Assembly: GCA_022828085.1 (NCBI GenBank) | Contig: JAJEIY010000046.1 | Coordinates: 556 to 64,555, forward strand | Reading direction: 5' to 3' | From: Acidobacteriota bacterium | Lineage (GTDB): Bacteria; Acidobacteriota; Vicinamibacteria; Marinacidobacterales; Marinacidobacteraceae | Length of the DNA stretch: 64,000 bases | Shown: positions 28,434 to 63,534 of the stretch, piece after piece | How positions within the stretch are numbered: the stretch's first letter is position 1 | Layout of the letters: every line of letters starts with the position of its first letter | Notes under the pieces: model-generated | The model's input: only the letters and a program-made list of their open reading frames with translations | What the model was told of the DNA's origin: nothing | The model's database searches: none | Position numbers and translations under genes: made by a program

Positions 28434-31637
<3,204 letters not shown>

Positions 31638-31640
31638 AAG

Positions 31641-33290: not shown

Positions 33291-34206
33291 GGCATTTCCT
33301 TTCGAACCGGACTCCGGGGAGCAGGCGGTCCCGGCCCCGGAGCGGCGGCAGCCCCGGAGAGGAGGGAATTCCGTTCCCCTTGTCCTTGAGAACGGTGACG
33401 ACGATGCCGTTTCCCCTGCGGCTCGCGTCGAAGCGCTTGCTGACCCGAGGGTCGAGTGATGGGGCGGCCGGCGGTTTGTCGGTCAGCAGGGCGACCGCGG
33501 TTCGATATTTGTGCGCGAGTCCGGCAAGCCGCGACAGATGAGGGAGCCCTGGAGGAGTGCTGAAACGGGACATGGGAGTCCTCCCGGATGCCGCGGCGGA
33601 GTCCGGCCCCGATTCCCGAACCGATTGAGGACCGGAACGCTCCGGCGGGAGCGAATCGGCGAGGTCCACGACCACCAGTCCGAAAGCTCCCGAATGGACA
33701 ACCCGGGTGGCGGCGCGAATCTGCGCTCCCGATGTTTCCAGCCGCAGCAGGACCAACCGGTCCAGTGCAATCCCCGATTCCACCGCATCCGGGGGAAAGA
33801 AGAGACTGCGGGTCGTCGCTATCCAGGCGATCAGGGCGGGGTTTGGGGCGGAGTCGGGGTGCGCCCCCGGACCCGGCCCGGGATTCGGAGCGGAATGCCG
33901 GCGGTAGCGGAGTTTTTCGTGCCGGAACTGATGATGCTGGGCCTCGGCAACCAGCGCCAGCGCCGAAGACAGGACGCCGGAATCAGCCGTCCCGGAAATT
34001 TCCACGAGGCTGCCGGCAAGCCGGGCAAGCCCCCACTTCGCGATTTCCTGGTCAGGAGACGGTTCCTGGATCCGGGATGGGTGGATTCGGCGGAGTCCGG
34101 GGTGTCTGGAAAGGACATCGGAGCGGCCACCGGACGGAACCGGGGATCGAACGGGAGCGAGGGTTTGCTGCATCACGGTTTTTCTCTCGGCGGACATCGG
34201 GTTCAA
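33268..34206 (-). CDS. imuA: translesion-synthesis-associated protein ImuA (RecA/SulA-like)
   Basis: SGAFGLVVVDL RecA-fold segment; sited between lexA and imuB; start uncertain. Confidence 0.55.
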   Translation of the reverse strand: MNPMSAERKTVMQQTLAPVRSPVPSGGRSDVLSRHPGLRRIHPSRIQEPSPDQEIAKWGLARLAGSLVEISGTADSGVLSSALALVAEAQHHQFRHEKLRYRRHSAPNPGPGPGAHPDSAPNPALIAWIATTRSLFFPPDAVESGIALDRLVLLRLETSGAQIRAATRVVHSGAFGLVVVDLADSLPPERSGPQSVRESGPDSAAASGRTPMSRFSTPPGLPHLSRLAGLAHKYRTAVALLTDKPPAAPSLDPRVSKRFDASRRGNGIVVTVLKDKGNGIPSSPGLPPLRGRDRLLPGVRFERKCREPAGMC

Positions 34207-49167: not shown

Positions 49168-50049
49168 ATGCGCACCGGGGGGACCGTGGTCCTGCTCCTG
49201 CTGGGCCTCGGGACGCTCGCAGGTTGCGGTGGCGGCGAGGAAGCTCCCGCGCCCGTCGAAGAACCGGAGCCGGTCGAGGAGGCCCCTCCCGCCCCGGCGC
49301 CGGAACCGGCCCGCCCCGCCCCGCCGCCGGCTCCGCCGCCGCCGACCACGGGCGCTCTCCAGGTGGAGGGAACCGAAGGGGCCAGCGTGTCGCTCGGCGG
49401 CCGGGTGCTCGGGACCGTGCCGGGCGCCTGGGAGGAGCTGGAGGCGGGGGAGTATCCGATTCGAGTCGAGAAGGAGGGTTTCCATCCCCTGGAGGTCAAC
49501 ATCACCATCCGGGGAGGCCGGACGCGATCGCTGGCCGCGGATCTCATCGAAATGCTGGGATCCATCACCGTGGAAAGCGACGTGGCTGGGGCGAACGTCT
49601 TCCTGAACAGGAACTTCAAGGGAAACACGCCGGTGACCATCGTGGATCTGCAACCCGGCGAGTACAACCTGACGGTGTCGGTGGAGGGACACGACGTGGT
49701 CTCCCGGAAGGTCGCTGTGGGCCGGCGAGTCGTTCCGGTCCGGGTGGAGTTCGGCGACCTGGAGGCCACGCTGGACGTGCGGGTCGCTGTCGTCCACAAG
49801 CACCGCTTCGGATCGTGTGAGGGGACGCTCGTCGCCACGACGGAAGGGTTCGACTACCGGACGGATCACAAGGACGCCTTCCAACTGTCGTTCGGAGAGA
49901 CGGAACGTTTCGAGATCGACTATCTCGAGAACAATCTGCGACTCAAGGTGCGCGGGGGGCGTACCTACAACTTCGAGTCGCCTTCCGAGGATCTGGACTC
50001 GCTGTTCGTGTTTCACCGGGACGTCACCGCGTTTCGGGAGCAGCGGTAG
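49168..50049 (+). CDS. PEGA-domain lipoprotein
   Basis: Lipobox LLGLGTLAGCGG, a Pro/Ala-rich linker and three PEGA-like repeats (GEYPIRVEKEG, GEYNLTVSVEGHD). Confidence 0.6.
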   Translation: MRTGGTVVLLLLGLGTLAGCGGGEEAPAPVEEPEPVEEAPPAPAPEPARPAPPPAPPPPTTGALQVEGTEGASVSLGGRVLGTVPGAWEELEAGEYPIRVEKEGFHPLEVNITIRGGRTRSLAADLIEMLGSITVESDVAGANVFLNRNFKGNTPVTIVDLQPGEYNLTVSVEGHDVVSRKVAVGRRVVPVRVEFGDLEATLDVRVAVVHKHRFGSCEGTLVATTEGFDYRTDHKDAFQLSFGETERFEIDYLENNLRLKVRGGRTYNFESPSEDLDSLFVFHRDVTAFREQR

Positions 50050-50221
50050 GCGGCGCCGGTTTCTTGGTTCAGATCGGCTCTCGGACTGGTTCTTTACATA
50101 ATCATCCTTATCGGAAGCTCGCTCCGCACCTGCCGACGCCCGCGCGCGAAAGGACGCCCGGGCGCGGAATAGACGCGCACAGCGCTGGGCGGAGTCCCGC
50201 AGCACCCTGGTCATCACGGCA

Positions 50222-51553
50222 GTGATCCAGGACGAGGCGCGGCTCTCCCGCTGGGCCCAACTCGAATTCCCCGACGGAACGCCGGCGGAAGAGGCGCGTG
50301 CGCTCGTAGCCCTGATCCGGCGCGACGGCTGGCGCGTCCACAGGGGGGACGGCACCCGCCTGGTCATATCCGAGGTCCCCGCCAGCGACGATCCTCCCGC
50401 CGCACTGATGAAGGCGCTAAACGCCCCCGTGAATCCGGCGGGCCTCTCGGCCCTCGCGGAGGTGGTCGAGCAGGTTCGCGCCTGGGATTCGGGCTGGCAG
50501 GCGCGTTTCCCCGCCCGCCTGGAACGCTGGAACTTCAGCAAGGAGCAGCCTCCAGAATCGAGGTTGCTCGCCTTCCCCGGCCCCCAGGAGCCCGCCCCGG
50601 ACGAATTCCGGCCGGGCTACTTGCCGTTCAACGACGCGCCGACGCATCCGGAGGCGCCACCACTGCCTCCCGCACTTGCGGCGTTCGACTTCCTCGGTGG
50701 ACAGTCCATGCGCAGCGGACGCGGCGTGACCCACGAGGCCCGGCTCGTCGTTCACGTGCTCGGCAACCTGAGCCCGGCCGCACGCAAGAGCGGCGTCCTG
50801 ACTCCGCAGTACTTCTCCGCGGCCGAGATGGCGGCGGAATTGTGGGAGGAGATCCCCCGAGGGGGCCGGGCGATCCGGATGCTGCGCCGGGCGCTGGACC
50901 GCATGACGCGCCTCGAGGCCGGCCCCATCACACTTCCCGATGGATCCCTTGCCGCCCTGCGGCCCCTGATGATCGGCGCCATGCCTTACGGGCTCGACGG
51001 CTCGGTAGAGATCTTCGTCCGGCTCCCGCCAGACCCCGACGGGCGGGGCTTCCGGTACGACCGGCTGCGAGCCCGGCACTGGGCGCGGCGGGCGGCGCCG
51101 CACTGGCGGCTCTATTTCGCCGCCTGCTTCCTGCGCGACCGTTTCGCCATCGATGGACGGGGAATCGAGCTGACGATTCCCGAAGTGCAGCGCGGCCGCG
51201 GAGGGGTCATTCTCGACGCCGCCGGCAACCCCGTGTTCAGCAAAGGGCAGCCGGTCCTGGAGTGGCATCACCCGAAAGCGATCGCCACGGGGACGCGGCT
51301 CCCCAACCCCGCCGCTAGCCGCCTTCAGATCTATTCCCTCGCCGACCTTACCCGGGTTGCGTGCGGCCCTCCTCCGGACCATTTGAGCAAGGAGGGGCGC
51401 TACAAGCGCCGTGTGCGAACCGAGCAGGCGCTCACGGATCTCCAGGACGCGGGCGACCTGGAATTCGAACTCGCGGACGACCCGTGTGGCCGACGCCGCT
51501 TCCGGATCGCGGCCGTGGATCCTCGGCGCAGGCACCGCCGACTCATCGAGTAG
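50222..51553 (+). CDS. hypothetical protein; candidate iteron-binding replication initiator (assigned by position only)
   Basis: 443-aa ORF with coding-like GC3 and no family recognised by eye; ends 30 nt before six tandem iterons. Confidence 0.4.
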   Translation: MIQDEARLSRWAQLEFPDGTPAEEARALVALIRRDGWRVHRGDGTRLVISEVPASDDPPAALMKALNAPVNPAGLSALAEVVEQVRAWDSGWQARFPARLERWNFSKEQPPESRLLAFPGPQEPAPDEFRPGYLPFNDAPTHPEAPPLPPALAAFDFLGGQSMRSGRGVTHEARLVVHVLGNLSPAARKSGVLTPQYFSAAEMAAELWEEIPRGGRAIRMLRRALDRMTRLEAGPITLPDGSLAALRPLMIGAMPYGLDGSVEIFVRLPPDPDGRGFRYDRLRARHWARRAAPHWRLYFAACFLRDRFAIDGRGIELTIPEVQRGRGGVILDAAGNPVFSKGQPVLEWHHPKAIATGTRLPNPAASRLQIYSLADLTRVACGPPPDHLSKEGRYKRRVRTEQALTDLQDAGDLEFELADDPCGRRRFRIAAVDPRRRHRRLIE

Positions 51554-51585
51554 CCGAGTAGCCAACCCATCCCCGCAAGGGTTGT

Positions 51586-51709
51586 GTGTGTTTCCAGGGC
51601 GACCGGTGTGTTTCCAGGGCGACCGGTGTGTTTCCAGGGTCACCTGGTGTGTTTCCAGGGTCACCTGGTGTGTTTCCAGGGTCACCTGGTGTGTTTCCAG
51701 GGTCACCGG
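51586..51709. repeat. six tandem iterons: 2 x GTGTGTTTCCAGGGCGACCG (20 bp) + 4 x GTGTGTTTCCAGGGTCACC(T)G (21 bp)
   Basis: Direct tandem repeats read from the sequence (unit starts 51586, 51606, 51626, 51647, 51668, 51689). Confidence 0.85.
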
Positions 51710-51748
51710 CGTCTCGAAAACGCATGGCACTCTTGGCCTCGCGGATTT

Positions 51749-51808
51749 ACCCCAATTCTTCCCCAATTCCTTCCCAATTCCTCCCATATGGGGGAAGGGA
51801 ATTGGGGA
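51749..51808. repeat. three CCCAATTC direct repeats merging into an imperfect palindrome centred on CATATG (cccaattcctccCATATGggggaagggaattggg): origin/operator-like block
   Basis: Read from the sequence; locally AT-richer; adjacent to the iterons. Confidence 0.6.
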
Positions 51809-52081
51809 AGTGGACGTGCGACGAATTTCCACGCCACCAACACACGGAGCGACGGAGCCGACTTAGCGCGACTTCGTCGCGCGCCTCCGGTCGGGCTCCG
51901 CTTCGCGGCCCCTCCCTCTCCCGCCGCTCGCGCGGCGGGTCAACTACGAACGCGAAAACCGTTGCTGGACCGGCCCTGGGATGCCAGGAACATCACCAGA
52001 GCAGACCGGCGAATTCGCGCCGACGGCCCGGAGTGTGATAGATAACCGGCTCCGAACCCGAACCGGCTCCAAACCCGTGGC

Positions 52082-52109
52082 CACACACACACACACACAC
52101 ACACACACA
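52082..52109. repeat. (CA)14 dinucleotide microsatellite
   Basis: 28 nt of perfect CA repeats, 130 nt upstream of the primase-like gene. Confidence 0.9.
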
Positions 52110-52239
52110 GCAAGACCCGGACCAGGCCACGGCGTATATCCGGGCGCTTTATCCCGCTCCATCTGAACATCTCGCGCTAGTCGCGATCGACCGGGTCAAG
52201 GACCGCCACCCGGAACAGCGAATCCGACAGGCGCGAGCC

Positions 52240-52974
52240 GTGACCGCGCCGAAGTTCCAGGCGTGGCTTCGGGCTCTGAACGCCCAGGGCTACGACATCT
52301 TCGTGTCGATGAATCCCATCAACCCGGAGCGGCGACGCCGCGAGAAGCAGGACGTGGCGAAGGTGCGCCGGCTCCAGCTCGACCTGGACCGCAACGGCCC
52401 CGAGTCCCTGCATCGCGTGCTCGCCGACGTGCATGCGGGTTCCCTGCCCCGCCCCGCGGCTGTGGTCCGGAGCTCACGCCACAACTACCAGGTCATCTGG
52501 CACGCGGATCCGGACGTCTGGACCGCTCCGGAGGCCGAGGACACCATGCGCCGCCTGGCGGCCCGCTACGGGGGCGACTCCTCGGTCGCCGACGTCGCCC
52601 GCGTCATGCGTGTGCCGGGCTTCCGCAACAAGAAACCGGAGCGCGACGACGCGCCCGTGCAGTGGACCGACCACGCTGGCCGGCCGACGCGCCCGGATGC
52701 GTTCGCGCATCTCCCGAAGGTGGAGCATTCCCTGCAGCGCTCCCCCGGCACGGGACGTCAGATCGAGGGCCGCGACACCAGCCAGTCCGCCCGGGACTGG
52801 GCCTATGCCAAGGACCAGCTCCGCAAGGGCGTCCCCCAGGAGAAGGTCATCGCCGCGCTTGAGAAGCGCCGCGCCGGCGAGAAGCACGACCCCCGCTACT
52901 ACGCCGAGCGGACCACCCGCAAGGCATTCCTCGACATCCAGCGTCCGCGCGCGCGGGCGCTGCCATCCCGCTGA
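52240..52974 (+). CDS. RepB'-type DNA primase-like protein (plasmid primase family)
   Basis: Motifs LQLDLD (DxD), SSRHNYQVIWH and GGD..VADVARVMRVPGFRNKK resemble RSF1010 RepB'-like primase hallmarks. Confidence 0.5.
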   Translation: MTAPKFQAWLRALNAQGYDIFVSMNPINPERRRREKQDVAKVRRLQLDLDRNGPESLHRVLADVHAGSLPRPAAVVRSSRHNYQVIWHADPDVWTAPEAEDTMRRLAARYGGDSSVADVARVMRVPGFRNKKPERDDAPVQWTDHAGRPTRPDAFAHLPKVEHSLQRSPGTGRQIEGRDTSQSARDWAYAKDQLRKGVPQEKVIAALEKRRAGEKHDPRYYAERTTRKAFLDIQRPRARALPSR

Positions 52975-52995: not shown

Positions 52996-53214
52996 ATGGG
53001 AATCAGAGAAATCGAGATCGAGGGCAAACCCGCCCTCAGCGTCGACACCGAGGAGGAGTTCGCTCAGGTCTTCGACCGCGGGCTGCCCATCGAGGCCCCG
53101 CGAGAGGTCGTCGACGCCTTCGGCATCCCCGGCGCCGACGAGAACGGCGACCCCCTCGACACCGACGAGCCTTCGGCTGAGTTTGACGACCTGGCTCTGG
53201 AGGACCAGCCCTAA
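52996..53214 (+). CDS. small highly acidic protein (72 aa; candidate DNA-mimic / anti-restriction protein)
   Basis: Strong RBS AAAGGAG 9 nt upstream. About 35% Asp+Glu (..DTEEEFAQVFD..DENGDPLDTDEPSAEFDDLALEDQP). Confidence 0.5.
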   Translation: MGIREIEIEGKPALSVDTEEEFAQVFDRGLPIEAPREVVDAFGIPGADENGDPLDTDEPSAEFDDLALEDQP

Positions 53215-53248
53215 CCGCGCGGAACCCCGCGCCGCATGAGTAACCAAC

Positions 53249-54334
53249 ATGGCCGAAGCCAAAGCCAACACTCGCGGCCGGGACCGCATCACCGAGTACC
53301 ACCAGCAGTTTGCCGCCGCGATCATCAAGCAGATCGAGGCCGGCACCGCCCCCTGGCAGCGCCCCTGGAAACCCGGCGAGCAGCTCCTTCCCCGTAACCC
53401 CTTCACGGGCAACCGATACACCGGCGGCAACGCCCTCGGCCTCGCGCTCGAGGGCGCGCAACGCGGCTTCGCCGACCATCGCTGGGCCACCTACCGCCAG
53501 ATCAAGGAAGCCGGCGGCCACGTCCGCAAGGGCGAACGCGGCGCACAGATCCTCTACTTCCAGAACCGGAAGCTGCTTGCCAAGAAGGACGACCAGGGCC
53601 GTCAAATGGTCGACTCCGACGGCCGCACCGTCTACGAACGCCCCGACAAACCGCGGCTCCTCGTCCGCGTCTACACCGTCTTCAACGCCGAGCAAGCCGA
53701 AGGACTCGACCTGCCCCCGCGCGACGCGACCGCGCCCGAGTGGCAACGCCACCAGGCGGCCGAAGCCGTGATCGAAACCTCCAACGTCCCGATCAAACAC
53801 GCACCCGGCAATCGCGCCTACTACAGCTCAAGAGCCGACCAGATCGTCCTCCCCGAGCGCCGCCAGTTCCCGTCCGCCGAGCACTACTACGCGACGGCTC
53901 TCCACGAGCTTTCACACGCGTCCGGACACAAGAGCCGGATGGACCGCGAGACCTTCCACAACGCCGTCAAATACCCCACGGGCGGCTTCGGCAGCGCGCC
54001 CTACGCCCGCGAAGAGCTCCGGGCGGAAATCGCCGCCATGATGACCGGCGAGCGCATCGGCATTGGCCACCACCCGCAGGACGGCCACTGCGGCAACAGC
54101 GCGGCGTACGTCGAGAGCTGGATCAAAGCCCTCAAAGACGACCCACGCGAGATCTACCGCGCGGCCGCCGAGGCCACCCGCATCTCCGACTTCCTCGTGA
54201 AGCCGGCCCGCGAGCGGATCCAGGAGATCGGCCGGGACGAGCCGTCCTCACCGGACGCCGCCGAGATGCGCGTTCCCGCGCTCACGCATCCGTCTCCCGC
54301 GCGGCAGCAGCCGGCCATGACGCCCCGACGATGA
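53249..54334 (+). CDS. ardC: ArdC-like antirestriction protein (N-terminal ssDNA-binding DUF1738 domain plus C-terminal zincin-like metalloprotease domain with an intact HExxH)
   Basis: ArdC-N motifs AGTAPWQRPW and RYTGGNALGLAL; C-domain YYATALHELSHASGH. Confidence 0.7.
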   Translation: MAEAKANTRGRDRITEYHQQFAAAIIKQIEAGTAPWQRPWKPGEQLLPRNPFTGNRYTGGNALGLALEGAQRGFADHRWATYRQIKEAGGHVRKGERGAQILYFQNRKLLAKKDDQGRQMVDSDGRTVYERPDKPRLLVRVYTVFNAEQAEGLDLPPRDATAPEWQRHQAAEAVIETSNVPIKHAPGNRAYYSSRADQIVLPERRQFPSAEHYYATALHELSHASGHKSRMDRETFHNAVKYPTGGFGSAPYAREELRAEIAAMMTGERIGIGHHPQDGHCGNSAAYVESWIKALKDDPREIYRAAAEATRISDFLVKPARERIQEIGRDEPSSPDAAEMRVPALTHPSPARQQPAMTPRR

Positions 54335-54395
54335 GCCTCCCATCTCATGCCCAGCCTCCGCGCGATCCCGAAACCCCCCACCAGGAGTAAGAATC

Positions 54396-55532
54396 ATGGC
54401 TGAAGCCACTCCTGCGTGGCGAAGGTTCCTGAGGAACCTGCGCTGGGGCAACCCTGGGAAAAACCGGGCCTGGGACGAGGGGGGAGTCAAGGTCGCCGGG
54501 CCCCCGGCAAGACCACCGACCAAAAAAAACGCCGCCCGCCCGCACCGCCTGGCCGGTAGAAGCCGAGAGTCCCACCTCCACGGCCCGCTGGGCGATTACT
54601 ACCGGATGTTTGCCGAGACCGCCATCCGGCAGATGGAGGAAGGCACCGCGCTCTGGCACTGCCCGTCAGAGGACGGGGAGCGGGTTCTGCCCCGGAACGC
54701 CGTCACTCACCGCGCCTACACCGCCGGCAACGCCATCTACCTGGCCGTCCGCGGCCAGGACCGCGGCTTCCGCGACAACCGCTGGATGACCCTGCAGCAG
54801 ATCAAGGAGGCCGGCGCCCTGCCGCCGGACGGACCCGGCGAACGGATCCTCGTCCGCCACGACCGCAAGGGCCAGAAGCCCGTCTGCCGCACCTCCACCG
54901 TCTACAACGTCGAGCAGGTCCGCGGCCTCAACCTCGAGCGGCGCATGCCGCGTCCGGCGGACTGGCTCGCGGAACGCGGCGCCGACGCTGTCATCGCCGC
55001 TTCCGCCGTCGAGATCAAGCACACCGACGAGCCCTATAGCTGGCCCTACTACCGCGGGAACCGCAACCAGATCGTCCTGCCCAACTGGAAGAAAACCGCG
55101 AGCAGCAACCACTACTACAGCACCGCGCTTCGGAACATAGCCTGCGCATCCACACACGAAGATCGAACGGACCGCTGGCCACCTCCCCGCGAGCTGCTGC
55201 GCGCGGACATCGCCACCATCACGGTCTGCGACCGGTTGGGGCTCGGCTACCAGCCGCTTGCCGAGAATCCGCAGGATATTCGCGACCCGACCGGGGCTCC
55301 CGACTACACGGAGGCCTGGATCAAGGCCCTCAAGGAGGACCCGCGCGAGATGCACCGCGCGGCATCCGAGGGCCACCGCATCGCGGAGCACCTCATCCAG
55401 CCGGCCCGCGCGCAGTTACGGAACATCGTCCGCAAGGCACACGCCGCGCTCGATGCGGAGATGCTCGAAGGCACATCCCCCGCCCGTCCGTCTCCCGTGC
55501 GCCCGCAGCCGGCCATGACGCCCGGACGATGA
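54396..55532 (+). CDS. ArdC-like paralog 2 (HExxH replaced by RNIAC; N-terminus divergent, possible frameshift near an A8 run at 54524-54531)
   Basis: Core FAETAIRQMEEGTALW...YTAGNAIYLAV is homologous to copy 1. The C-domain reads YYSTALRNIACASTHEDR and the C-terminus ..PQPAMTPGR parallels copy 1. Confidence 0.6.
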   Translation: MAEATPAWRRFLRNLRWGNPGKNRAWDEGGVKVAGPPARPPTKKNAARPHRLAGRSRESHLHGPLGDYYRMFAETAIRQMEEGTALWHCPSEDGERVLPRNAVTHRAYTAGNAIYLAVRGQDRGFRDNRWMTLQQIKEAGALPPDGPGERILVRHDRKGQKPVCRTSTVYNVEQVRGLNLERRMPRPADWLAERGADAVIAASAVEIKHTDEPYSWPYYRGNRNQIVLPNWKKTASSNHYYSTALRNIACASTHEDRTDRWPPPRELLRADIATITVCDRLGLGYQPLAENPQDIRDPTGAPDYTEAWIKALKEDPREMHRAASEGHRIAEHLIQPARAQLRNIVRKAHAALDAEMLEGTSPARPSPVRPQPAMTPGR

Positions 55533-55593
55533 GCCTCTCATCCCGTGCGCGGACCCCGCGCGATCCCGAAACCCCCAACCGGGAGTAACCAAC

Positions 55594-56586
55594 ATGGCCG
55601 AAGCCAAAACCTCTCCCTCGAAGCCCGCGATCGACTCGCCCAGCCGCTACTACGGGAAGTTCGCCGAGACCGCCATCCGGCAGATGGAGGAAGGCACCGC
55701 GCCTTGGCAGCGCGCCGCGAAGGCCGGCGAGCGGGTCCTGCCCCGAAACGCCATCACCCACCGCGCCTACACCGGCGGCAACGCCGTCTACCTGCCCGTC
55801 CGCGGCCAGGACCGCGGCTTCACCGACAACCGCTGGATCACCATGCAGCAGATCAAGGAGGCCGGCGCCCAGCCGCCGAAGGGGCCCGGCGAACGCATCC
55901 TCGTCCGCCAGGAACGCGACGGGCAGAAGCCCGTCTGGCGCACCTCCATCGTCTACAACGTCGAGCAGGTCCGCGGCCTCAAGCTCGACCGGCGCCCGCC
56001 GCGGCCGGAATGGCAGGCGCACCGCGGCGCCGACGCCGTCATCGCCGCCTCCGCCGTCGAGATCAAGCACACCGCCGGCGAACACAACTACTACAACAAG
56101 GAGCACGACCAGGTCGTCCTCCCCGAGCGGAAGCAGTTCCGGAGTCCGGAGCACTACTACAGCACCGCGCTGCGGAACATGGCCCACGCCTCCGGACACG
56201 AGAGCCGGATGGACCGCGAGACCTTCAAGCAGACCCACAGCGAGGGTCTGGACGGCGCGGCGCACGGCCGCGAGAAGCTCCGTGTCGAGATCGCCACCAT
56301 GACGGCGGGCGACCGGCTCGGCGTCGGCTACCAGCCGCAGCACGATCCCAGCTACAAGGAGCTCTGGATCAAGGCCCTCAAGGAGGACCCGCGCGAGATG
56401 CACCGCGCAGCCTCCGAGGGCCACCGCATCGCGCGGAACCTCATCAAGCCCGCCCGCGAACAGCTGCGGGGCATCGCCCGCGAAGCGCGCGCCGCGCGCG
56501 ATGCGGAGACGCCCGAACGCGCTCCCCAGGCCCCTCCGAAAGCCATGCCCCAGCGCCAGGTGCCGGCGATGTCCCCCGCGCGCTGA
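55594..56586 (+). CDS. ArdC-like paralog 3 (HExxH replaced by RNMAH)
   Basis: MAEAK.. start and a -35 to -1 upstream region conserved with copies 1 and 2; YYSTALRNMAHASGHESRMDRETF. Confidence 0.65.
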   Translation: MAEAKTSPSKPAIDSPSRYYGKFAETAIRQMEEGTAPWQRAAKAGERVLPRNAITHRAYTGGNAVYLPVRGQDRGFTDNRWITMQQIKEAGAQPPKGPGERILVRQERDGQKPVWRTSIVYNVEQVRGLKLDRRPPRPEWQAHRGADAVIAASAVEIKHTAGEHNYYNKEHDQVVLPERKQFRSPEHYYSTALRNMAHASGHESRMDRETFKQTHSEGLDGAAHGREKLRVEIATMTAGDRLGVGYQPQHDPSYKELWIKALKEDPREMHRAASEGHRIARNLIKPAREQLRGIAREARAARDAETPERAPQAPPKAMPQRQVPAMSPAR

Positions 56587-56595
56587 CCCCCGCCC

Positions 56596-57498
56596 ATGAG
56601 TCGCCGTCCGGAGCCCCGCCATCCCACCAGGCCGGCCGCCCCCCGCGGCCGCGAGCCTTGGCGCACCGGACACCGCCGGGAACACGGTTCCCGGGACGGC
56701 GCTCCCCGCGGCCGGGACCGGCGCGAAGGCGCGCTCGTGGACATCAGCGCCCATCGAGTCGCCGCCTACCAGGACATCGCGGCCGTCCACTTCGACGGCC
56801 ACCCCTACGCCGCGCGCGCCGGCATCAACCGCCTCAAGCGCGAGGGCCTCGTGACCGAGCATCAGGCGGACGGGCCGAACGGCGGCTCCTTCACTGTCCT
56901 GGCGGCGACCAGGAAGGGAGCCGCGGAGGCGCAGGCCGCCGCGGAGAGCCGCGGCGGCGCCGACGGACAGCACTTCTGGAGCGGGATCGGACGCCGCGAG
57001 GACCTCGCCCACGACGTCGCCGTCTACCGCGCCGTGCTTGCCGCCCGGGAAGAGCTCGCCGCCAAGGGAGTCGAGGCGCTCCGGGTCCGGCTCGACGCGG
57101 AGCTGCGCCGCATCGTGGTCCGGCGGAGCGAGCGGGCCCGGGCCCGGGCGGGGCGGAAGGCGGCCGACGCCGAACGGCGGCGCGCGGCCGCCGAGCTCGG
57201 ACTTCCCCACTCCCCGGAGGGGGCGGTGTCGTTCCCGGACGCGCAGCTCGAATACACCCTCGAGGAGGATGCCGGGGGACAGACGTTCGGCCGGGTGAAC
57301 ATCGAGGTCACCACCGAGCACTACCGCGAAGGCGCGATCGCGGCGAAGGCCGCGGCGGGCTTCGCGCTCCACGGCTCGAACGGCAAGGCCGGCCGCCTCA
57401 TCGCGAGAACCATCGCGAAAGCCTTTCGGGAGGCGGCAAGACCACAGCGCAGCGGCGGGGGGAGGGACCCGACACCGCGGGAGCTGATGGAGATCTGA
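56596..57498 (+). CDS. hypothetical protein (Arg/Ala-rich; start uncertain)
   Basis: ORF with coding-like bias between the ArdC triplet and the T4SS genes; no family recognised. Confidence 0.35.
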   Translation: MSRRPEPRHPTRPAAPRGREPWRTGHRREHGSRDGAPRGRDRREGALVDISAHRVAAYQDIAAVHFDGHPYAARAGINRLKREGLVTEHQADGPNGGSFTVLAATRKGAAEAQAAAESRGGADGQHFWSGIGRREDLAHDVAVYRAVLAAREELAAKGVEALRVRLDAELRRIVVRRSERARARAGRKAADAERRRAAAELGLPHSPEGAVSFPDAQLEYTLEEDAGGQTFGRVNIEVTTEHYREGAIAAKAAAGFALHGSNGKAGRLIARTIAKAFREAARPQRSGGGRDPTPRELMEI

Positions 57499-57499
57499 G

Positions 57500-57817
57500 A
57501 TGCATCCCTGGAAAGTGAGCGTCGGCGTCACCGTCGCGGTCACGGCGCTGGCCGTCTTCTTCGGGGCCTCCCACTTCGACTACCTCGCACCCTACCGCCG
57601 GGTCATCGTCACCGAGTACTGGTGGCCGATCACCCTCTACGCGGGCGCGGCCTTCCTCACCGTCGTCATTGCCGTCGCCGGGATCCTGCGGAGCCTGGGG
57701 CTCTACGACATCGGCCGGAAGGTCGACCTCGCGGAGCGCTCGGTTCGCCGCGGCGACGGCGATCCCGACCTTGCCCGCCGCCTTGCCGAACAGGAGCAGG
57801 GCGACTTCACCGACTAA
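57500..57817 (+). CDS. small two-TM membrane protein, hypothetical
   Basis: Two hydrophobic helices (VGVTVAVTALAVFF.., ITLYAGAAFLTVVIAVAGIL); immediately upstream of trbC. Confidence 0.4.
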   Translation: MHPWKVSVGVTVAVTALAVFFGASHFDYLAPYRRVIVTEYWWPITLYAGAAFLTVVIAVAGILRSLGLYDIGRKVDLAERSVRRGDGDPDLARRLAEQEQGDFTD

Positions 57818-57838
57818 CCCAACCCAGGAGGCTCTTCC

Positions 57839-58135
57839 ATGAAGCGCACCACATCCCATATCCGTGCGGCCATCATCCTGGCTGCCGCCGCTGTGCTCGT
57901 GCCGAGCGCCGCGTTCGCCACGATGGCAGGCACCAGCCCCTGGCTGAACGCCGTCTCGGTCCTCGAGACCGCCTTCACCGGCCCGATCGCCCGCGGCCTG
58001 TCCCTGATCGCCATCGTCATCGGCGGGCTGATGTTCGCCTTCGGCGAGGGCGGCTCCAAGAAGGCCCTGGCCGGGATCATCTTCGGCCTCGGCATGGCGA
58101 TGGGCGCCGTGAACTTCCTCGGCTGGCTCTTCTGA
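57839..58135 (+). CDS. trbC: TrbC/VirB2-family conjugative pilin
   Basis: Signal peptide plus two hydrophobic segments and a Gly-rich C-terminus (IAIVIGGLMFAFGEGG...IIFGLGMAMGAVNFLGWLF); RBS GGAGG. Confidence 0.7.
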   Translation: MKRTTSHIRAAIILAAAAVLVPSAAFATMAGTSPWLNAVSVLETAFTGPIARGLSLIAIVIGGLMFAFGEGGSKKALAGIIFGLGMAMGAVNFLGWLF

Positions 58136-58203
58136 CCCGTCCATACGGTATTGATCGTATGACGCCATACGGTATTGACCGTGCATACGGTCGGGCTTGA
58201 ATC

Positions 58204-58494
58204 GTGACCGGCAAGCGCGCCTGGCACGGCCACCCCGCCCTGAGCCGGCCGCTCACCATCATGGGGGTCGAGAGACGGTGGTTCCTGCTGTCTCTCACCC
58301 TCGGCCTGGCGATGTGGAACGCCATCAACTCGCTCGTCACGGGCGGCCTGATCTTCGGCACCCTCTACGCCGCCGGCTGGCTCGCCTGGCGCCAGGACCC
58401 GAACATGCTGTCCATCGTCGCGGCGAGCGCCACGAGCCGCGTCCGCTACGACGCCGGCAAGCCGAGCCTGTGGCACGTCGACCTCCTCGAATGA
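58204..58494 (+). CDS. VirB3/TrbD-family T4SS protein
   Basis: ~96 aa, two TM segments, overlapping the virB4 start (ATGA) in the typical virB3-virB4 arrangement. Confidence 0.6.
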   Translation: MTGKRAWHGHPALSRPLTIMGVERRWFLLSLTLGLAMWNAINSLVTGGLIFGTLYAAGWLAWRQDPNMLSIVAASATSRVRYDAGKPSLWHVDLLE

Positions 58495-60926
58495 ACCTCC
58501 AGGCCGAGCAGCAGGACTTTGCCGCGGCGGGCGCGCTCGCCGACGAGCTGCCCTACTGGGGCTGGCTGAAGGAACATCCCTTCTGCCTCACCCGCGCCGG
58601 CGAGTTCCTGGCGGCCGCCGAACTGGAGCCGGCCGTCCTGGACGGCCGCACTCCCGAGCAGCTGGACCAGGTGCTGAACCGCTGGCAGCGCCTGCTCTCC
58701 TCCCTCGACACCAGCACCCGGCTCTACTTCTACCTGCTCCGTCGCCCCGGCGTCCTGGGCGAGGTCACCGGCCTCGACGGCGTCGCCGCCCTCTCCCAGC
58801 GGAACCGGCGCGACTTCCTCCTGTCCCGGATCCACGACCTCCGGACGTTCGTCGTCTGGAGCCACAACCCCGGCCTCGAGCGGGCGGGTCGCTCCGGCCC
58901 CCGGGGCAACCACTGGCTGGTCGAGTACGCGCGCAACTGGCTCCGGGCGCGCCGTAACCCCCACGAGTCCGTCTTTCTCCTCGCCGAGGTGCGCCAGGCC
59001 GCCACCCGCTTCCGCCAGCTCGTCGAGGCCTCCGCCGCCCTCGCCAACGAGGTCACCCCGATCCGCCTCCTGCCGGCGGACGAGGCGACTCCCTTCCTGA
59101 GCGAACTCGTCAACCGTCCCGGCCTCGAGTGGCACGGCGACGCCGCGGCCAGCGCCCTCAACTGGCGGCTGCCGCTCTCCGAACTCGAAGCCGAGCGCCA
59201 ACACCTCCGGCTCGACGGCGAGCCCGTCATCCTCTACTCCCTCCTCTCGCCGCCGGCCACCGCCCGCGCCAACCTCCTCTACGAACTCGCCCGCATGGAG
59301 GCGCGGTTCACCCTGTCTCTCGAGTGGCGTCCCTACGCCCTCGAGGCCGCCCGGCGCAAGATCCGGAGCGCGCAGCGCCACTACTTCTCGAAGCGCTACT
59401 CCATGGCGGCGCACGTGCAGGACACCGAGGGCACGGCTTCGGCCATGGTCGATGCCGCCGCCGACGCCGAGGCCGACCGCCTCGGCGGCGCCCTCGTCGA
59501 GCTCGAGGCCGACGGCGTCGGCTACGGCGACGTATCGCTAACGATCGCGCTGCACGGTCCGCTCGCGGAAACGGAGCGCCAGGACGCTGAACTGCGCCGG
59601 ATCTTCTCCGGCTGCGACGCCAAGCTCATCCGCGAGGGCTACGGCCAGCTCGCCAGCTGGTTCGCGCGCATGCCGGCCATGCCGCGCAAGCGGCAGATCC
59701 GTTCCGTCTTCGCGAGCGCGGGCGTCGCCTCCTGCCTGGCGCCACTCTTCGGGCCCCCGCGCGGCCACCGGGTCAGCAAGCACCTCTCCCGGCCGGCTTT
59801 GGCCACGTTCGAGACTCCCTGGAAGACCTCGTATCACTACGACCTCTTCGCGGGGGCCGATGTCGGGCACACGCTCATCCTCGGCGCCACCGGCGCGGGC
59901 AAGAGCTTCACGCTCAACTTCCTGCTCGTCCAGGCCCTCCAGTACCAGCCGCGGGTCCTCATCCTGGACCTCGGCGGCTCCTACCGGTGGCTCACCCAGT
60001 TCCTGGGCGGCGGCTACCTCCAACTCGCCCCCGAGCGCGCCGACGGCGCGCTCGCCCTCAAGCCCTTCTCCCTGCCCTCCGGCGAGCGGACCTTCCAGTT
60101 CCTCACCGGCTGGATCACCCGCCTTCTCCGCATCGGCGGCTACGAACTCACCGGACGGGATCCGTCCGAGATCCGGAGCCGCGTCGAGGACCTCTACGCC
60201 TTCTCCGAGGCCCAGCGCTCCCTGTCCGCGTTCGTCTCCTCCCTGCCGAAGGGGATGTGGCCGGCCATGAGCCGCTGGCACGGCAACGGCGCCTGGGCCG
60301 CTTACTTCGACAACCCGGGCGCCGACGAACTGCAGCTCCAGGACTGGCAGGTCATCGACCTCGCCGGCGCCGCAGAGCACGAGGACCTCTGCGAGGCCGC
60401 GCTGTTCTACCTCCTCGAGCGCATGCGCCTCGCCCTCGAGAACCCGGACGAGGCGGCCCGCGTCAAGCTGATGGTCGTCGACGAGGCCTGGCGGTACCTC
60501 CGGGACCCCGCCATCCTCGCCTACCTCGCGGAGGCGGCGAAGACCTGGCGGAAGCGCAACGCCGCCCTCGTCCTCGCCACCCAGTCCGCGATCGACGTCA
60601 CCGCCAGCCCGGCGGCGAAGGGGCTCCTCGAGTCCCTCCCGACGAAGCTCTTCCTGGCCAACCCCGACCTCCCCGACCAGGTCGGCGAGATCTTCCGCCT
60701 CAACGAGACGGAGATGGCCACCATCCGCCAGCTCGTCCCCAAGCAGGAGCTCTACCTGCGCCGGTCCCAGTCCGCCGGCGTCCTCCGCCTCCACGTCGAC
60801 CCCGAGAGCTACTGGCTCTACACGTCCTCTCCCATCGACTCCGAGCGGCGCGCCGAGGCGGTCGCGGCGCACGGCCTCACCGGCGGCCTCGCCGCCCTCG
60901 CCAGACAAACGGAGCTCTCCACATGA
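58491..60926 (+). CDS. VirB4/TrbE T4SS ATPase
   Basis: Walker A GATGAGKSF, Walker B LMVVDEAW and CagE/TrbE-like domains. Internal ATG at 58491; the tool ORF start at 58197 is over-extended. Confidence 0.85.
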   Translation: MNLQAEQQDFAAAGALADELPYWGWLKEHPFCLTRAGEFLAAAELEPAVLDGRTPEQLDQVLNRWQRLLSSLDTSTRLYFYLLRRPGVLGEVTGLDGVAALSQRNRRDFLLSRIHDLRTFVVWSHNPGLERAGRSGPRGNHWLVEYARNWLRARRNPHESVFLLAEVRQAATRFRQLVEASAALANEVTPIRLLPADEATPFLSELVNRPGLEWHGDAAASALNWRLPLSELEAERQHLRLDGEPVILYSLLSPPATARANLLYELARMEARFTLSLEWRPYALEAARRKIRSAQRHYFSKRYSMAAHVQDTEGTASAMVDAAADAEADRLGGALVELEADGVGYGDVSLTIALHGPLAETERQDAELRRIFSGCDAKLIREGYGQLASWFARMPAMPRKRQIRSVFASAGVASCLAPLFGPPRGHRVSKHLSRPALATFETPWKTSYHYDLFAGADVGHTLILGATGAGKSFTLNFLLVQALQYQPRVLILDLGGSYRWLTQFLGGGYLQLAPERADGALALKPFSLPSGERTFQFLTGWITRLLRIGGYELTGRDPSEIRSRVEDLYAFSEAQRSLSAFVSSLPKGMWPAMSRWHGNGAWAAYFDNPGADELQLQDWQVIDLAGAAEHEDLCEAALFYLLERMRLALENPDEAARVKLMVVDEAWRYLRDPAILAYLAEAAKTWRKRNAALVLATQSAIDVTASPAAKGLLESLPTKLFLANPDLPDQVGEIFRLNETEMATIRQLVPKQELYLRRSQSAGVLRLHVDPESYWLYTSSPIDSERRAEAVAAHGLTGGLAALARQTELST

Positions 60927-61813
60927 TCCCCGGCTTCCCCGCGATCCCGCCCCGTCTCCTCCTCTTCCTGCTCGTGTTCCTCCTCTGCCAGGGGCTCGCA
61001 CCGCTCGCGGCGCCCCAGGACGGGCACATCCTCCGGCTCGACGACACCCCCGAGGACACCGTCTGGCGGCTCCAGACCCGCACCCGCCACACCACCGTCA
61101 TCACCCTCCCGCCGCACGAGACCATCCTGGACTTCGTCGTCGGCGACGCCGAGTACTGGCACCTCTCCGGCAGCGCCAACGTCGCCTTCCTCAAGCCGAT
61201 CGCGGACGATGCCGCGACCAACATCGCGCTGGTCTGCGAGTCCGGACGGATCTACACCTTCCTCGTCGCCGAGTCCGCAGAAGAGGAGCCCCACCTCGTC
61301 GTCCGCTTCCCGGCCGCCGGGCCGGACGACGGCACCACCGACGTCCCCGCGCCGACGGCCCGCGGCGCCCACGAGCCGGCATTCGTCGCCCGCTCCCGGG
61401 TCCAGTCCTACCAAGCCATGGCCACCCAGGCGCGCGCCGAGGTGCAGGCCGCCCGGGCCGACGCCGAAGAGCAGATCGACGCGGCCCGCCAGGCCGCCGC
61501 GGACGAGATCGACGCCTACCGCGCGGCGTATCCGCTCCGGATCGAGTTCCCCTACACGCTCGACAAGAAAGCCCGCGAGTGGCCCTTCCTGGTCGAGGCC
61601 ATGTGGCACGACGGCCAGTTCACCTACCTCCGGAGCCGCGCCCAGGAGTCCCCCGCGCTCTACGAGCGCAAGGACGGCGAGCCCTCCCTCGTCCCCTACG
61701 ACCTCACCGAGACCGGCCTCTACGTCGTGCGCCGCATCATCGGCGAAGGCTGGCTTCAACTCGGCAGGGAACGCGCCCGCTGGCGCTTCACGCCCCCGGA
61801 CCCCCTGCCGTGA
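60923..61813 (+). CDS. secreted VirB9/TrbG-like N-domain protein with an alpha-helical C-terminal half
   Basis: Signal peptide, then FVVGDAEYWHLSGSANVAFLKPIADDAATNIALVCESGRIYTFLV, which resembles the VirB9 N-domain signature (GD..W....N.F.KP.....TNL.V.T..R.Y.F.L). Overlaps the virB4 stop (ATGA). Confidence 0.45.
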   Translation: MIPGFPAIPPRLLLFLLVFLLCQGLAPLAAPQDGHILRLDDTPEDTVWRLQTRTRHTTVITLPPHETILDFVVGDAEYWHLSGSANVAFLKPIADDAATNIALVCESGRIYTFLVAESAEEEPHLVVRFPAAGPDDGTTDVPAPTARGAHEPAFVARSRVQSYQAMATQARAEVQAARADAEEQIDAARQAAADEIDAYRAAYPLRIEFPYTLDKKAREWPFLVEAMWHDGQFTYLRSRAQESPALYERKDGEPSLVPYDLTETGLYVVRRIIGEGWLQLGRERARWRFTPPDPLP

Positions 61814-62109
61814 ACATCGCTCACCGCTCCCCGCGCCGCTCGGGAACCCCCCTCGCGGAGACGGCCGGTCCTCCAGACCGTCCGGAGAGCGCCAGCCTTT
61901 CGCCCGGATGCCGGCGGCCACGGTGCGCAAACGCGCCTGAGACGCCTCCTGAGCGCACGGCCGGCCGGACGGCCCGCGTGCCGCGTACACCCCGGAAACG
62001 GCGAGAGACGCCCGTTTTCGGGCCTTCCCGGGCCATTTCCGACCGAAGCCGTGCGTCCGGAAGCCTCCGGAGCCCGCCTTTCGCGCCCGCGCCTGTCTGA
62101 CATCCCCCC

Positions 62110-63534
62110 ATGACCATTTGGAAACGCATCGCCGCCAGCCCCGCCGGCGCACCCCGCCGGCTCTCCCCGCTCGCCCTCGGCGCGATCCTCCTGGCAGAGG
62201 GCTACGCCTCGCTGGGGGCCGAGATCCTGGCGCTGCGGCGCATCGCCCCCTGGGCCGGGACCTCGGTGGACGTCACCACCGTGCTCCTCGCCGCCTACCT
62301 GGCCGCCCTCGCCGGCGGCTACCGCCGCGGCGGGCGCCTCGCCCGTGACGGCGACCCCCGCCCGCGGCTCGCGTTCCGCCTGACGCTCGCCGCGGCCCTC
62401 GCCGCCTTCTGGCTGTCCGAGCCCGGCATCCTGCTGGCCTTCGGCCTGCCGCTCCCCCCGCTGGTCCAGGCGGCCTTCTACGCGGTCGTGGGCATCGCTC
62501 CCGTCGGCTGGCTCCTCGCGGAGTGCGTTCTGCTGGCCCACGCCTGCGCGCCCACCGGCGAACGCTCGGCGACCGCCGGCCGCGTCTTCGCCCTCTCCAC
62601 CGTCGGGAACGTCGCGGGGGCGCTCGCCACGACGTTCCTGCTGTTGCGCTTTCTCGGTACCGCCGCCGCCGCACTCGTCCTCTGCGCAGGCCTGCTGGGC
62701 GCGGCCCTGCTGGCCTTCCGGCGCAGCGTCCCGCTGGCCGCCTGCGCGGCCGTTGCCGTCTTCCTCGCCGTCGACCTCTGGACCGAGGCGTCCGTCTACG
62801 TCGAGCGCAACGCCTACGCCGACTATCGCATTGCGGAGCGCGACGGCGGGCGGGTCCTCGAACTCAACCAGCAATGGGCCTCCCGCCATGACGCCGCCGG
62901 CAAGGGTTGGCCCTATGTCGAGCTCCTCGAGGCGACCCTGTGCGAGGCCGGCGAGACGCGTGTGCTGGTGCTCGGCGCCGGCGGGATGACCATCGGCCAG
63001 GGCGCCCCCTGCGCGCTCGAGCCGGTCTTCCTCGACCTCGACCCGGACCTGGAGCGCATCGCCTCCGACTTCCTGGACGTCCCCGAAGGCGCCGCGGGGA
63101 CCTTCCATGCCCGCGACGCGCGCGCCTTCCTCCGGGACGACCCCGGAGGCTGGGACGCGATCGTCGCCGATGCCTTCACCAACTGGCGCTCCGTTCCCCG
63201 CCACCTTCTCACCGTCGAGTTCTACGGCCTGGCCCGCTCCCGCCTCCGTCCCGGCGGCTCGCTCTACGTCAACCACGTCGCCCACGGCGATCCGGCCGGC
63301 GAGCGGCTGTTCCTCACCCGCGTCGAACGCACCCTCCGCAGCGTGTTCGCCGGCTGCGCCATGCGCGAGACCGGTCTGCCGCCCGGCACCGGCTGGCACG
63401 CCGCCGCCACCATCCCCCGCGGCCTCCTCTTCCGCTGCCTCCGGTCGGATCTCGACGGGGACCGCGCCGTCTACTCCGACGCTTTGCCGCGGGCTGACCT
63501 CGACCGCGGCCTCCGGCTGGGAGCCCCCGACTGA
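62110..63534 (+). CDS. polytopic membrane protein fused to a spermidine-synthase-like (class I SAM-MTase fold) domain
   Basis: ~7 N-terminal TM helices, then VLVLGAGGMTIGQG..DLDPD..F..WDAIVADAF..YGLARSRLRPGGSLYVNHV, typical of the SpeE-like fold. Confidence 0.6.
   Translation: MTIWKRIAASPAGAPRRLSPLALGAILLAEGYASLGAEILALRRIAPWAGTSVDVTTVLLAAYLAALAGGYRRGGRLARDGDPRPRLAFRLTLAAALAAFWLSEPGILLAFGLPLPPLVQAAFYAVVGIAPVGWLLAECVLLAHACAPTGERSATAGRVFALSTVGNVAGALATTFLLLRFLGTAAAALVLCAGLLGAALLAFRRSVPLAACAAVAVFLAVDLWTEASVYVERNAYADYRIAERDGGRVLELNQQWASRHDAAGKGWPYVELLEATLCEAGETRVLVLGAGGMTIGQGAPCALEPVFLDLDPDLERIASDFLDVPEGAAGTFHARDARAFLRDDPGGWDAIVADAFTNWRSVPRHLLTVEFYGLARSRLRPGGSLYVNHVAHGDPAGERLFLTRVERTLRSVFAGCAMRETGLPPGTGWHAAATIPRGLLFRCLRSDLDGDRAVYSDALPRADLDRGLRLGAPD

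Follow-up and report, generated by a model that had tools for sequence, protein, structure and literature searches.

A candidate initiator gene and a probable iteron-type origin as a putative replication module of a conjugative island in an Acidobacteria chromosome

We analysed a 64,000-nucleotide stretch of DNA from an Acidobacteriota bacterium (assembly GCA_022828085.1, contig JAJEIY010000046.1, positions 556 to 64,555; hereafter the window, with coordinates counted from its first letter). The segment at 50.2–52.0 kb contains an open reading frame (ORF) of 443 aa, a candidate replication initiator gene, which is followed by a tandem-repeat array and by a C-rich repeat and palindrome block, with a primase gene further downstream. 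The features of this segment are listed below; an L followed by a number designates a related locus.

50222–51553, plus strand: candidate initiator gene, 443 aa, member of an unnamed family
51586–51605 and 51606–51625, plus strand: iterons 1 and 2, 20 bp each, GTGTGTTTCCAGGGCGACCG, ending CGACCG
51626–51646, 51647–51667 and 51668–51688, plus strand: iterons 3 to 5, 21 bp, identical, GTGTGTTTCCAGGGTCACCTG, ending TCACCTG
51689–51709, plus strand: iteron 6, 21 bp, GTGTGTTTCCAGGGTCACCGG, ending TCACCGG
51710–51746, plus strand: spacer of 37 bp with the partly conserved motif CTCGAA...CTCTTGG; 55% identity to L002 and L009
51747–51812, no strand assigned: three 11-bp CCCCAATTCYT repeats that run into a palindrome centred on CATATG; suggested to serve in unwinding and/or as a hairpin
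51864–51962, no strand assigned: 99-bp non-coding block with hairpins at 51866–51882 and 51920–51939
52044–52077 and 52082–52109, plus strand: 17-bp duplication and (CA)14 tract upstream of the primase gene, both length-variable between strains
52240–52974, plus strand: RepB'-type (IncQ-type) DNA primase gene (PF16793, E 6.6e-23)

Repeats, palindrome and genes at 50.2–52.0 kb

The array at 51586–51709 consists of six head-to-tail repeats on the plus strand, two of 20 bp followed by four of 21 bp, and the first of them begins 32 bp past the stop codon of the 443-aa ORF. An earlier reading of this sequence (the original prediction) had described six tandem 20/21-bp repeats, and all six were recovered. 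Tandem Repeats Finder (TRF) assigned the array a period of 21, 5.9 copies, 97% matches and a score of 202; it is the sole array of period 18–24 and score ≥60 in the window. The 14-nt core GTGTGTTTCCAGGG occurs exactly six times in the window, always inside the array. When up to two mismatches were allowed, 0.23 matches were expected in the window, and 7 matches were reached in 0 of 100 shuffles. The spacing of 20–21 bp corresponds to about two helical turns, which places the repeats in helical phase. From this sequence pattern, the six 20/21-mers are proposed to be the binding sites of the initiator. Recent expansion of the array, at which the original prediction had hinted, agrees with the clustered, identical copies, which fit a recent tandem expansion.

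Two other roles of the repeats were rejected. The small CCAGG-N4-CCTGG hairpins within the iterons were dismissed as terminators because they belong to every repeat unit. Arm-type integrase sites were dismissed as well; the repeats lie 1.5 kb inside an island described below and behind the rep gene in every context.

Downstream of the spacer, CCCAATTC is found at 51751, 51762 and 51773 on the plus strand and inverted at 51799–51806, with no further copies in the window. These three repeats merge into a CATATG palindrome, just as had been claimed: the arms of the inverted repeat (51758–51775 and 51793–51810) are 18 nt long and 89% complementary, and its centre CATATG lies at 51785–51790. The single-stranded fold of this region has an energy of −19.2 kcal/mol (z = −3.3 vs shuffles), and the palindrome yields a C-arm/G-arm hairpin on either strand. 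The G+C content reaches a local minimum of 0.47 at 51740–51779, compared with a background of ~0.68 and about 70% for the whole window. The block 51747–51812 is 95% identical to L002 and L009, and the flanking DNA is 28–59% identical.

The 443-aa ORF has the signature of a coding sequence, with G+C contents of 0.75/0.53/0.84 at the three codon positions (GC3 0.84). The ratio of nonsynonymous to synonymous divergence (dN/dS) is 0.11–0.21 against three orthologues. By these comparative measures, the ORF is evidently a real gene under purifying selection. The primase encoded further downstream is 30% identical over 125 aa to the primase of an RSF1010-like (IncQ1) plasmid, and the position of its gene is conserved in L002, L009 and L013.

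Between the palindrome and the primase gene, the 99-bp block 51864–51962 is 95–96% identical to L002 and L009, with flanks of 28–59% identity and a rep gene dS of ~0.8. In its hairpin at 51920–51939 the stem CCCGCCGC/GCGGCGGG is invariant and the loop varies (TCGC, TCCC, TGGC). The folding energy of the block is not exceptional (z = −1.6), and the block is confined to the conjugative-island group. Candidate functions are a priming site of the RepB'-type primase, an origin of transfer (oriT) or a single-strand promoter. The (CA)14 tract and the 17-bp duplication differ between strains: L013, whose island is 98% identical, has about (CA)7 and no 17-bp duplication, and L002 has (CA)12.5, which gene callers include in the primase as extra N-terminal sequence. 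A (CG)7–8 tract occupies a place in the L015 and L016 origins comparable to that of the (CA) tract in the window. Such alternating purine-pyrimidine tracts may recur as a feature of origins, or they may act as a switch prone to slippage.

The protein family, its predicted fold and its candidate origins

The upstream ORF had been claimed to belong to no recognised family, and its product indeed matches no Pfam, PHROG or NCBIfam entry. Its close relatives number nine, all of them metagenomic, and the sole named one is labelled 'hypothetical'. A profile search of 1.84 billion representatives yielded 467 clusters at E ≤1e-3 and 241 at E ≤1e-10 (clusters counted at 50% identity), and every cluster member that was looked up is unnamed or 'hypothetical'. 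Most members are 450–600 aa long and align over the C-terminal ~300 residues. The named genome matches are metagenome-assembled genomes (MAGs) of Acidobacteria, Spirochaetales and Gammaproteobacteria. Relatives of the family locus were also sought in viral contigs and in Joint Genome Institute (JGI) metagenomes, and none were found there.

The structure of the 443-aa protein was predicted with AlphaFold2. A model from 9 sequences was unusable, with a predicted local distance difference test (pLDDT) score of 44, and was superseded by a model from 50 family members with a mean pLDDT of 75, in which residues ~160–443 mostly exceeded 88. This part of the model comprises two helix-strand-helix-helix-hairpin units, corresponding to two winged-helix domains. 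In a Foldseek search of the PDB, the iteron complexes of RepE54 (mini-F) and a single-strand complex of Rep with a DNA unwinding element (Rep-DUE) ranked first. These were the only PDB matches spanning ~250 columns (probability up to 0.85, with 0.82–0.85 for RepE54; target-normalised template modelling (TM) score 0.44–0.52, E 0.08–0.5). Among the predicted viral proteins of BFVD, the top match was a 'COG5527 protein involved in initiation of plasmid replication' (E 0.015, probability 1.00, 273 columns). Partial matches include single winged-helix regulators (MarR, PadR). The original prediction had named structure prediction as a check on the ORF: the winged-helix domains it looked for are present in the model and initiators are the best full-length matches, with E-values that are not significant.

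The DNA past the stop codon was read in every relative with a fetchable contig. This gave 11 loci of 26–98% identity, which are not independent and fall into roughly five or six lineages.

L013 (98%): six iterons as in the window apart from one substitution; downstream as in the window
L002 and L009 (77–78%): five iterons with a shared 5' half and varying 3' halves; downstream as in the window
L004 (59%): three 21-mers, GTGTGYGYGGACGTGAACTTC; then ACCCCYAATTC repeats, then CCCCCCATATGGGGGG
L006 and L007 (57–64%): three degenerate 21–22-mers; then CCCCAR repeats and a C/G palindrome
L011 and L012 (26–28%): three or four perfect 22-mers from the first base past the stop codon; a C-tract/G-tract motif and a second 22-mer set
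L015, L017 and L016 (36% over 118–162 aa aligned to the window protein): at least three ~20–22-mers; a (CG)7–8 tract and C-rich repeats ending in a palindrome

In nine of the 11 loci, TRF detected an array of period 20–22 that begins just before or ≤40 bp past the stop codon of the family gene. The arrays of L006 and L007 are visible by eye and are not among the TRF-scored loci. A scan of 206 kb, made up of the window and ten loci, served as a control: it returned 21 arrays of period 18–24 and score ≥60, of which 10 lay in the 160-bp slots around the stop codons of family genes. The sequence of the iterons is specific to each lineage (GTGTGTTTCCAGGG..., GTGTGTGTGGACGTGAACTTC, ACGTGCTACTCGGTTTACATTG and GACCTACCCATCCGCCGGAA). 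Eight of the 11 relatives retain the C-tract/AT/G-tract palindrome, and it can be aligned across all eight loci that were aligned, down to 26% identity. Iterons that vary with the protein beside a constant palindrome are what one would expect of repeats that serve a diverging protein as its specific binding sites, together with a palindrome that has a structural or host-facing role at the same origin. Several more repeat sets (TTCTGTTTCCATCGRG units) are present downstream of the origin in L011 and L012.

Relatives of the 443-aa gene also have replication-type neighbours. In L004, L006, L011 and L012, a gene for an AAA_25 (RepA-type) helicase lies directly upstream of the family gene, and it overlaps the family gene in L006, L011 and L012. 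In the RSF1010-like plasmid, repC likewise overlaps repA. L004 and L006 additionally encode a zinc-finger/Toprim (DUF7146) primase and an integrase. The contigs of L011 (29 kb) and L012 (25 kb) repeat themselves at offsets of 15,039 bp (100% identity) and 14,865 bp, respectively. These self-repeats suggest that each contig is a dimer or a circular read of a ~15-kb element, which we read as circular or concatemeric. In both, the sole recognisable replication gene is that of the AAA_25 helicase, which is paired with the family gene. L011 (1–17548) and L012 (1–17551) encode AAA_25, the family protein, an integrase and a protein with a Por_Secre_tail (type IX secretion signal), and L012 has a perfect 75-bp repeat (4.1 copies) within its AAA_25 gene (7190–7496).

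L015 carries at 4327–9686 genes for ParA, a ribbon-helix-helix protein and the family protein, then iterons, NikA/MobC and a MobA/VirD2 relaxase. From its gene content this order is that of a mobilisable-plasmid-like backbone, apparently with the family gene in the initiator slot. The L015 contig has high coverage (cov ~903) and was binned with an Acidobacteria MAG.

The layout in relatives, these replication and plasmid contexts and the predicted two-winged-helix fold together support the ORF as a candidate novel Rep initiator, which had been the central proposal of the original prediction. The protein is a new sequence family within a well-known kind, an iteron origin plus a winged-helix initiator on an integrated mobile element.

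The integrated island, the origin reading and its rivals

The remaining features that bear on the island are the following.

50091–50118, minus strand: dif-like 28-bp site, GCTTCCGATAA-GGATGA-TTATGTAAAGA, at the chromosome/island junction
52996–61813, plus strand: rest of the island in the window, comprising a 72-aa ORF, three ArdC paralogues and Replic_Relax-like, TrbC/VirB2, VirB3, VirB4 and CagX/VirB9-like genes

The first 50 kb of the window are ordinary chromosome, with MutS, GuaA, DnaE, AccA, RpoN, PtsI, an ImuB/DnaE2 cassette, SSB, Tol-Pal, MiaB and ParAB. The minus-strand genes at 28434–34206 resemble an ImuA-ImuB-DnaE2 mutagenesis cassette: a DnaE2-type second polymerase III alpha subunit and an ImuB-like Y-family protein, with a 312-aa ORF upstream. 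No tRNA genes were found in the window, and an Rfam search of it gave two sub-threshold chance matches only.

The border between chromosome and island lies in the 172-bp gap before the rep gene. The block 50090–50119 in this gap is unique in the window, and its 24-nt core is found without change in each of the six related loci that span it. On its left the similarity is of the chromosome type and on its right of the island type, and the GC skew turns from positive to negative at this site. The dif-like site has an 11+6+11 layout, a right arm that reads TTATGT(T/A)AAGA, and no second instance in the window. Its arms match the Escherichia coli dif sequence at 16 of 22 positions. The island may sit at the replication terminus through Xer recombination at dif, which the sequence offers as a lead and not as a result. 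No second dif-like site or direct repeat that would mark the right end of the island was found within the window. The VirB9-like gene is followed by a 300-bp gap (61814–63534 being the segment behind it) and then by a gene at 62110 that resembles a fused major facilitator superfamily (MFS)/spermidine synthase gene (NF037959, E 1.8e-29). A search for the wider context of this gene returned only a 2.7-kb contig. The negative GC skew runs on to the window end, and this gene may be either island cargo or chromosomal. The island may reach past the window or be incomplete or truncated.

The match to Replic_Relax is borderline (25.2 bits vs a cutoff of 25.3). The three consecutive ArdC paralogues at 53249–56586 combine ArdcN with a zincin-like metallopeptidase and show 38–43% mutual identity in L009; related contigs tend to break at these paralogues in assemblies. 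A blastn search with 48–54 kb matched only ArdC genes of proteobacterial plasmids and no phage.

The same arrangement occupies the same chromosomal place in three other Acidobacteria MAGs (L002, L009 and L013). Compared with L013, the chromosomal genes are 89–97% identical (dS 0.29–0.47) and the island genes 96–98% (dS 0.07–0.10). Compared with L009, the chromosomal genes are 89–98% identical (dS 0.25–0.35) and the initiator gene 78% (dS 0.80). Because the divergence histories of island and chromosome disagree, the island has been exchanged horizontally; it is evidently an island, putatively conjugative, that is integrated in the chromosome and not a free plasmid.

Taken together, 50.2–52.0 kb is probably the replication module (rep gene plus origin of vegetative replication, oriV) of a horizontally exchanged conjugative island in an Acidobacteria chromosome, a reading to which we assign a probability of roughly 0.75. 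In the mechanism that we propose, the 443-aa initiator would bind, as monomers or dimers, to the six iterons, phased at 20/21 bp, that follow the stop codon of its gene. Its binding would open the adjacent stretch of lowest G+C content, which comprises the three 11-bp CCCAATTC repeats and the palindrome. Two papers on iteron plasmids report Rep proteins that bind one strand of the unwinding element sequence-specifically (PMC4081077, PMC10602881), which suggests a plausible role for the three 11-mers. A replicative helicase would be loaded next. In relatives this would be the AAA_25 RepA-type enzyme; here it would be the host's or encoded elsewhere, because none is encoded nearby. Priming would follow, plausibly by the RepB'-type primase encoded directly downstream, and the integrated copy itself may still fire.

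The original prediction had called the locus an iteron-controlled theta origin. The iteron-type origin is supported by a layout that recurs down to 26% identity; theta replication is not established. IncQ-like strand displacement is equally possible as theta, because a RepB'-type primase gene lies directly downstream and, in relatives, an AAA_25 gene directly upstream. Further pointers to this mode are the lack of a DnaA box and the ssiA-style C-arm/G-arm hairpin. A bolder version would make the locus a new class of replicon. It would join a multi-phylum initiator family, an IncQ-like, DnaA-independent three-protein mode (initiator, AAA_25 helicase and primase), a single palindrome serving as the hairpin signal for both strands, and an island placed at chromosomal dif by host Xer recombination instead of its own integrase. 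We consider this version speculative and rather unlikely.

Several results weigh against the replication-module reading. All of the evidence for an origin and initiator is comparative or predicted. The missing Pfam (E ≤1), PHROG and NCBIfam matches leave the 443-aa protein without a link to a curated Rep family. Furthermore, 50 family members matched no replication-protein family of Pfam at E ≤0.01, and a PDB sequence-profile search with the family found nothing. Membership in IncQ RepC (PF06504) was rejected on sequence, with an hhalign probability of 8.3% over 46 C-terminal columns only. A tblastn search found no homologue of the protein in 72,556 sequenced plasmids or 50,697 phages; as far as these collections reach, no cultured replicon vouches for the family. 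All fold matches fall short of significance (E 0.015–0.5, above 1e-3; TM 0.39–0.52; root-mean-square deviation 5–8 Å), and because the match values are below formal significance we regard the modelled fold as consistent with an iteron initiator, not as proof of one. The putative unwinding element, with its three 11-mers, is A+T-rich in relative terms only (47% G+C). No iteron-like operator or autoregulatory iteron copy was found near the rep promoter, and no DnaA box (TTATCCACA, ≤1 mismatch) within 50000–52300. DnaA boxes are not universal, and IncQ origins have no DnaA-box requirement. Finally, the window contains no integrase, coupling protein, AAA_25 helicase or Toprim primase, and the type IV secretion system (T4SS) gene set of the island looks incomplete (VirB2, B3, B4 and a VirB9-like gene are present); this copy could be inactive.

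This last point leads to the possibility that the origin is of a real type and nevertheless a fossil, in a decayed island fixed beside dif whose module no longer fires. The absence of an integrase, coupling protein, VirB6/8/10/11 or helicase from the island part of the window would fit such decay, as would the spermidine-synthase-like gene that comes next at 62110 and the occurrence of the island at the same site in four genomes. However, both the rep gene and the primase gene are intact and evolve under purifying selection (dN/dS 0.11–0.21), the iterons are perfect copies, the non-coding blocks are 95–96% conserved, and a history discordant with the chromosome implies recent exchange. The window may also end before the remaining island genes. 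We therefore hold a fossil module to be unlikely. Even less can be said for an operator array without an origin, in which the 443-aa protein would be a winged-helix regulator controlling the primase/ArdC/T4SS operon through the repeats. The repeats do lie upstream of a co-directional operon, and MarR and PadR regulators are among the partial fold matches; the full-length matches, however, are initiators and not regulators. The array stays at the 3' end of the family gene even where the genes downstream are entirely different or absent, and the family gene directly follows a replicative-type helicase gene, overlapping it in three of four loci. Six phased repeats with a melting-prone palindrome are likewise origin-like, and an operator is improbable.

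Transfer signals would be suggested by the downstream genes, which, with a primase and three anti-restriction paralogues of the ArdC type, resemble the leading region of a conjugative element. The palindrome and the 99-bp block would then be an oriT or a leading-region single-strand promoter, and the repeats would bind relaxosome accessory proteins. In L015 the array indeed lies between the family gene and the NikA/MobC-relaxase operon, and the 99-bp block is limited to the conjugative-island group. In contrast, the repeats and palindrome are also present in L004, L006, L011 and L012, where no recognisable conjugation or mobilisation gene was found, and they thus travel with the family gene and not with transfer genes. 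For array and palindrome this explanation is highly improbable; for the 99-bp block alone, a transfer signal is a possibility that falls somewhat short of even odds. Tandem 20-bp repeats are typical of plasmid centromeres too, and the array could in principle be a centromere-like partition site bound by the 443-aa protein. However, the island encodes no partition ATPase within the window, L015 has a separate ParA and ribbon-helix-helix pair upstream of the family gene for that role, and the protein, which resembles initiators, far exceeds known centromere binders in size. A centromere is accordingly very remote. The array keeps its place behind the family gene whatever follows, which contradicts the operator, relaxosome and centromere explanations alike, and the coupling to a helicase argues against all three too.

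Significance and comparison with known systems

Current annotation mostly misses the replication modules of mobile elements from uncultured phyla; the examples here come from Acidobacteria and Spirochaetaceae MAGs and putatively circular ~15-kb elements. The fixed gene-iteron-palindrome layout would mark plasmids, integrative elements and replicative islands in such groups, and the origin/initiator pairs would serve to build vectors for hosts that currently have none. With this family, the winged-helix initiators gain a branch that is new in sequence. Should the link to dif be real, the element would be a replicative, conjugative island that uses Xer recombination. The locus is useful for annotation and engineering, and it would be a conceptual surprise only if the IncQ-like mode and integration at dif hold.

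The gonococcal genetic island is a dif-integrated island, i.e., an integrative mobile element exploiting Xer (IMEX), that encodes a T4SS. The island described here similarly begins at a dif-like site at the GC-skew switch, carries T4SS genes and shows no integrase of its own in the sequence seen. It differs in that a single dif-like site is visible in the window and no right end of the island was found there.

Among initiators, the RepE/Rep_3 proteins (COG5527, PF01051; RepE54, PDB 1rep) provide the best full-length fold matches, with two predicted winged-helix domains in the C-terminal ~280 residues of the window protein, and they share the phased iterons adjoining the gene. In contrast to this likeness, there is no detectable sequence similarity, the fold matches are weak (E 0.015–0.5), and the window protein has about 150 extra, poorly conserved N-terminal residues.

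In RSF1010, RepC binds oriV, RepA unwinds the DNA and RepB' primes on hairpins, and the origin has 3.5 iterons and the single-strand initiation sites ssiA and ssiB (PMC8567376). The iterons are similar in kind (3.5 × 22 in the RSF1010-like record vs 5.9 × 21 here), a RepB'-type primase gene adjoins the origin, and a DnaA box is absent. The AAA_25 gene of the relatives lies directly upstream of the initiator gene and usually overlaps it, as in repA-repC. C-arm/G-arm hairpins near the iterons are ssiA-like in style, with no sequence match to RSF1010 ssiA. The differences from IncQ are that the family proteins have 443–600 aa vs 283 aa and lack a RepC Pfam match, that the origin directly abuts the initiator gene and has one palindrome instead of two separate ssi sites, and that the island has no helicase gene in the window. 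Moreover, the palindrome also occurs in relatives with a Toprim primase instead of RepB' and, for this reason, cannot be RepB'-specific.

Salmonella genomic island 1 (SGI1) is an integrated island with a proven oriV immediately downstream of rep, and it replicates after excision (PMC7433901). The Rep protein of SGI1 has a RepA_C domain, its oriV a DnaA box and the island its own integrase, whereas the locus described here has no Pfam match, DnaA box or integrase in the window. As an integrated mobilisable island with an iteron origin just downstream of rep, SGI1 is nevertheless the closest tested precedent for this layout.

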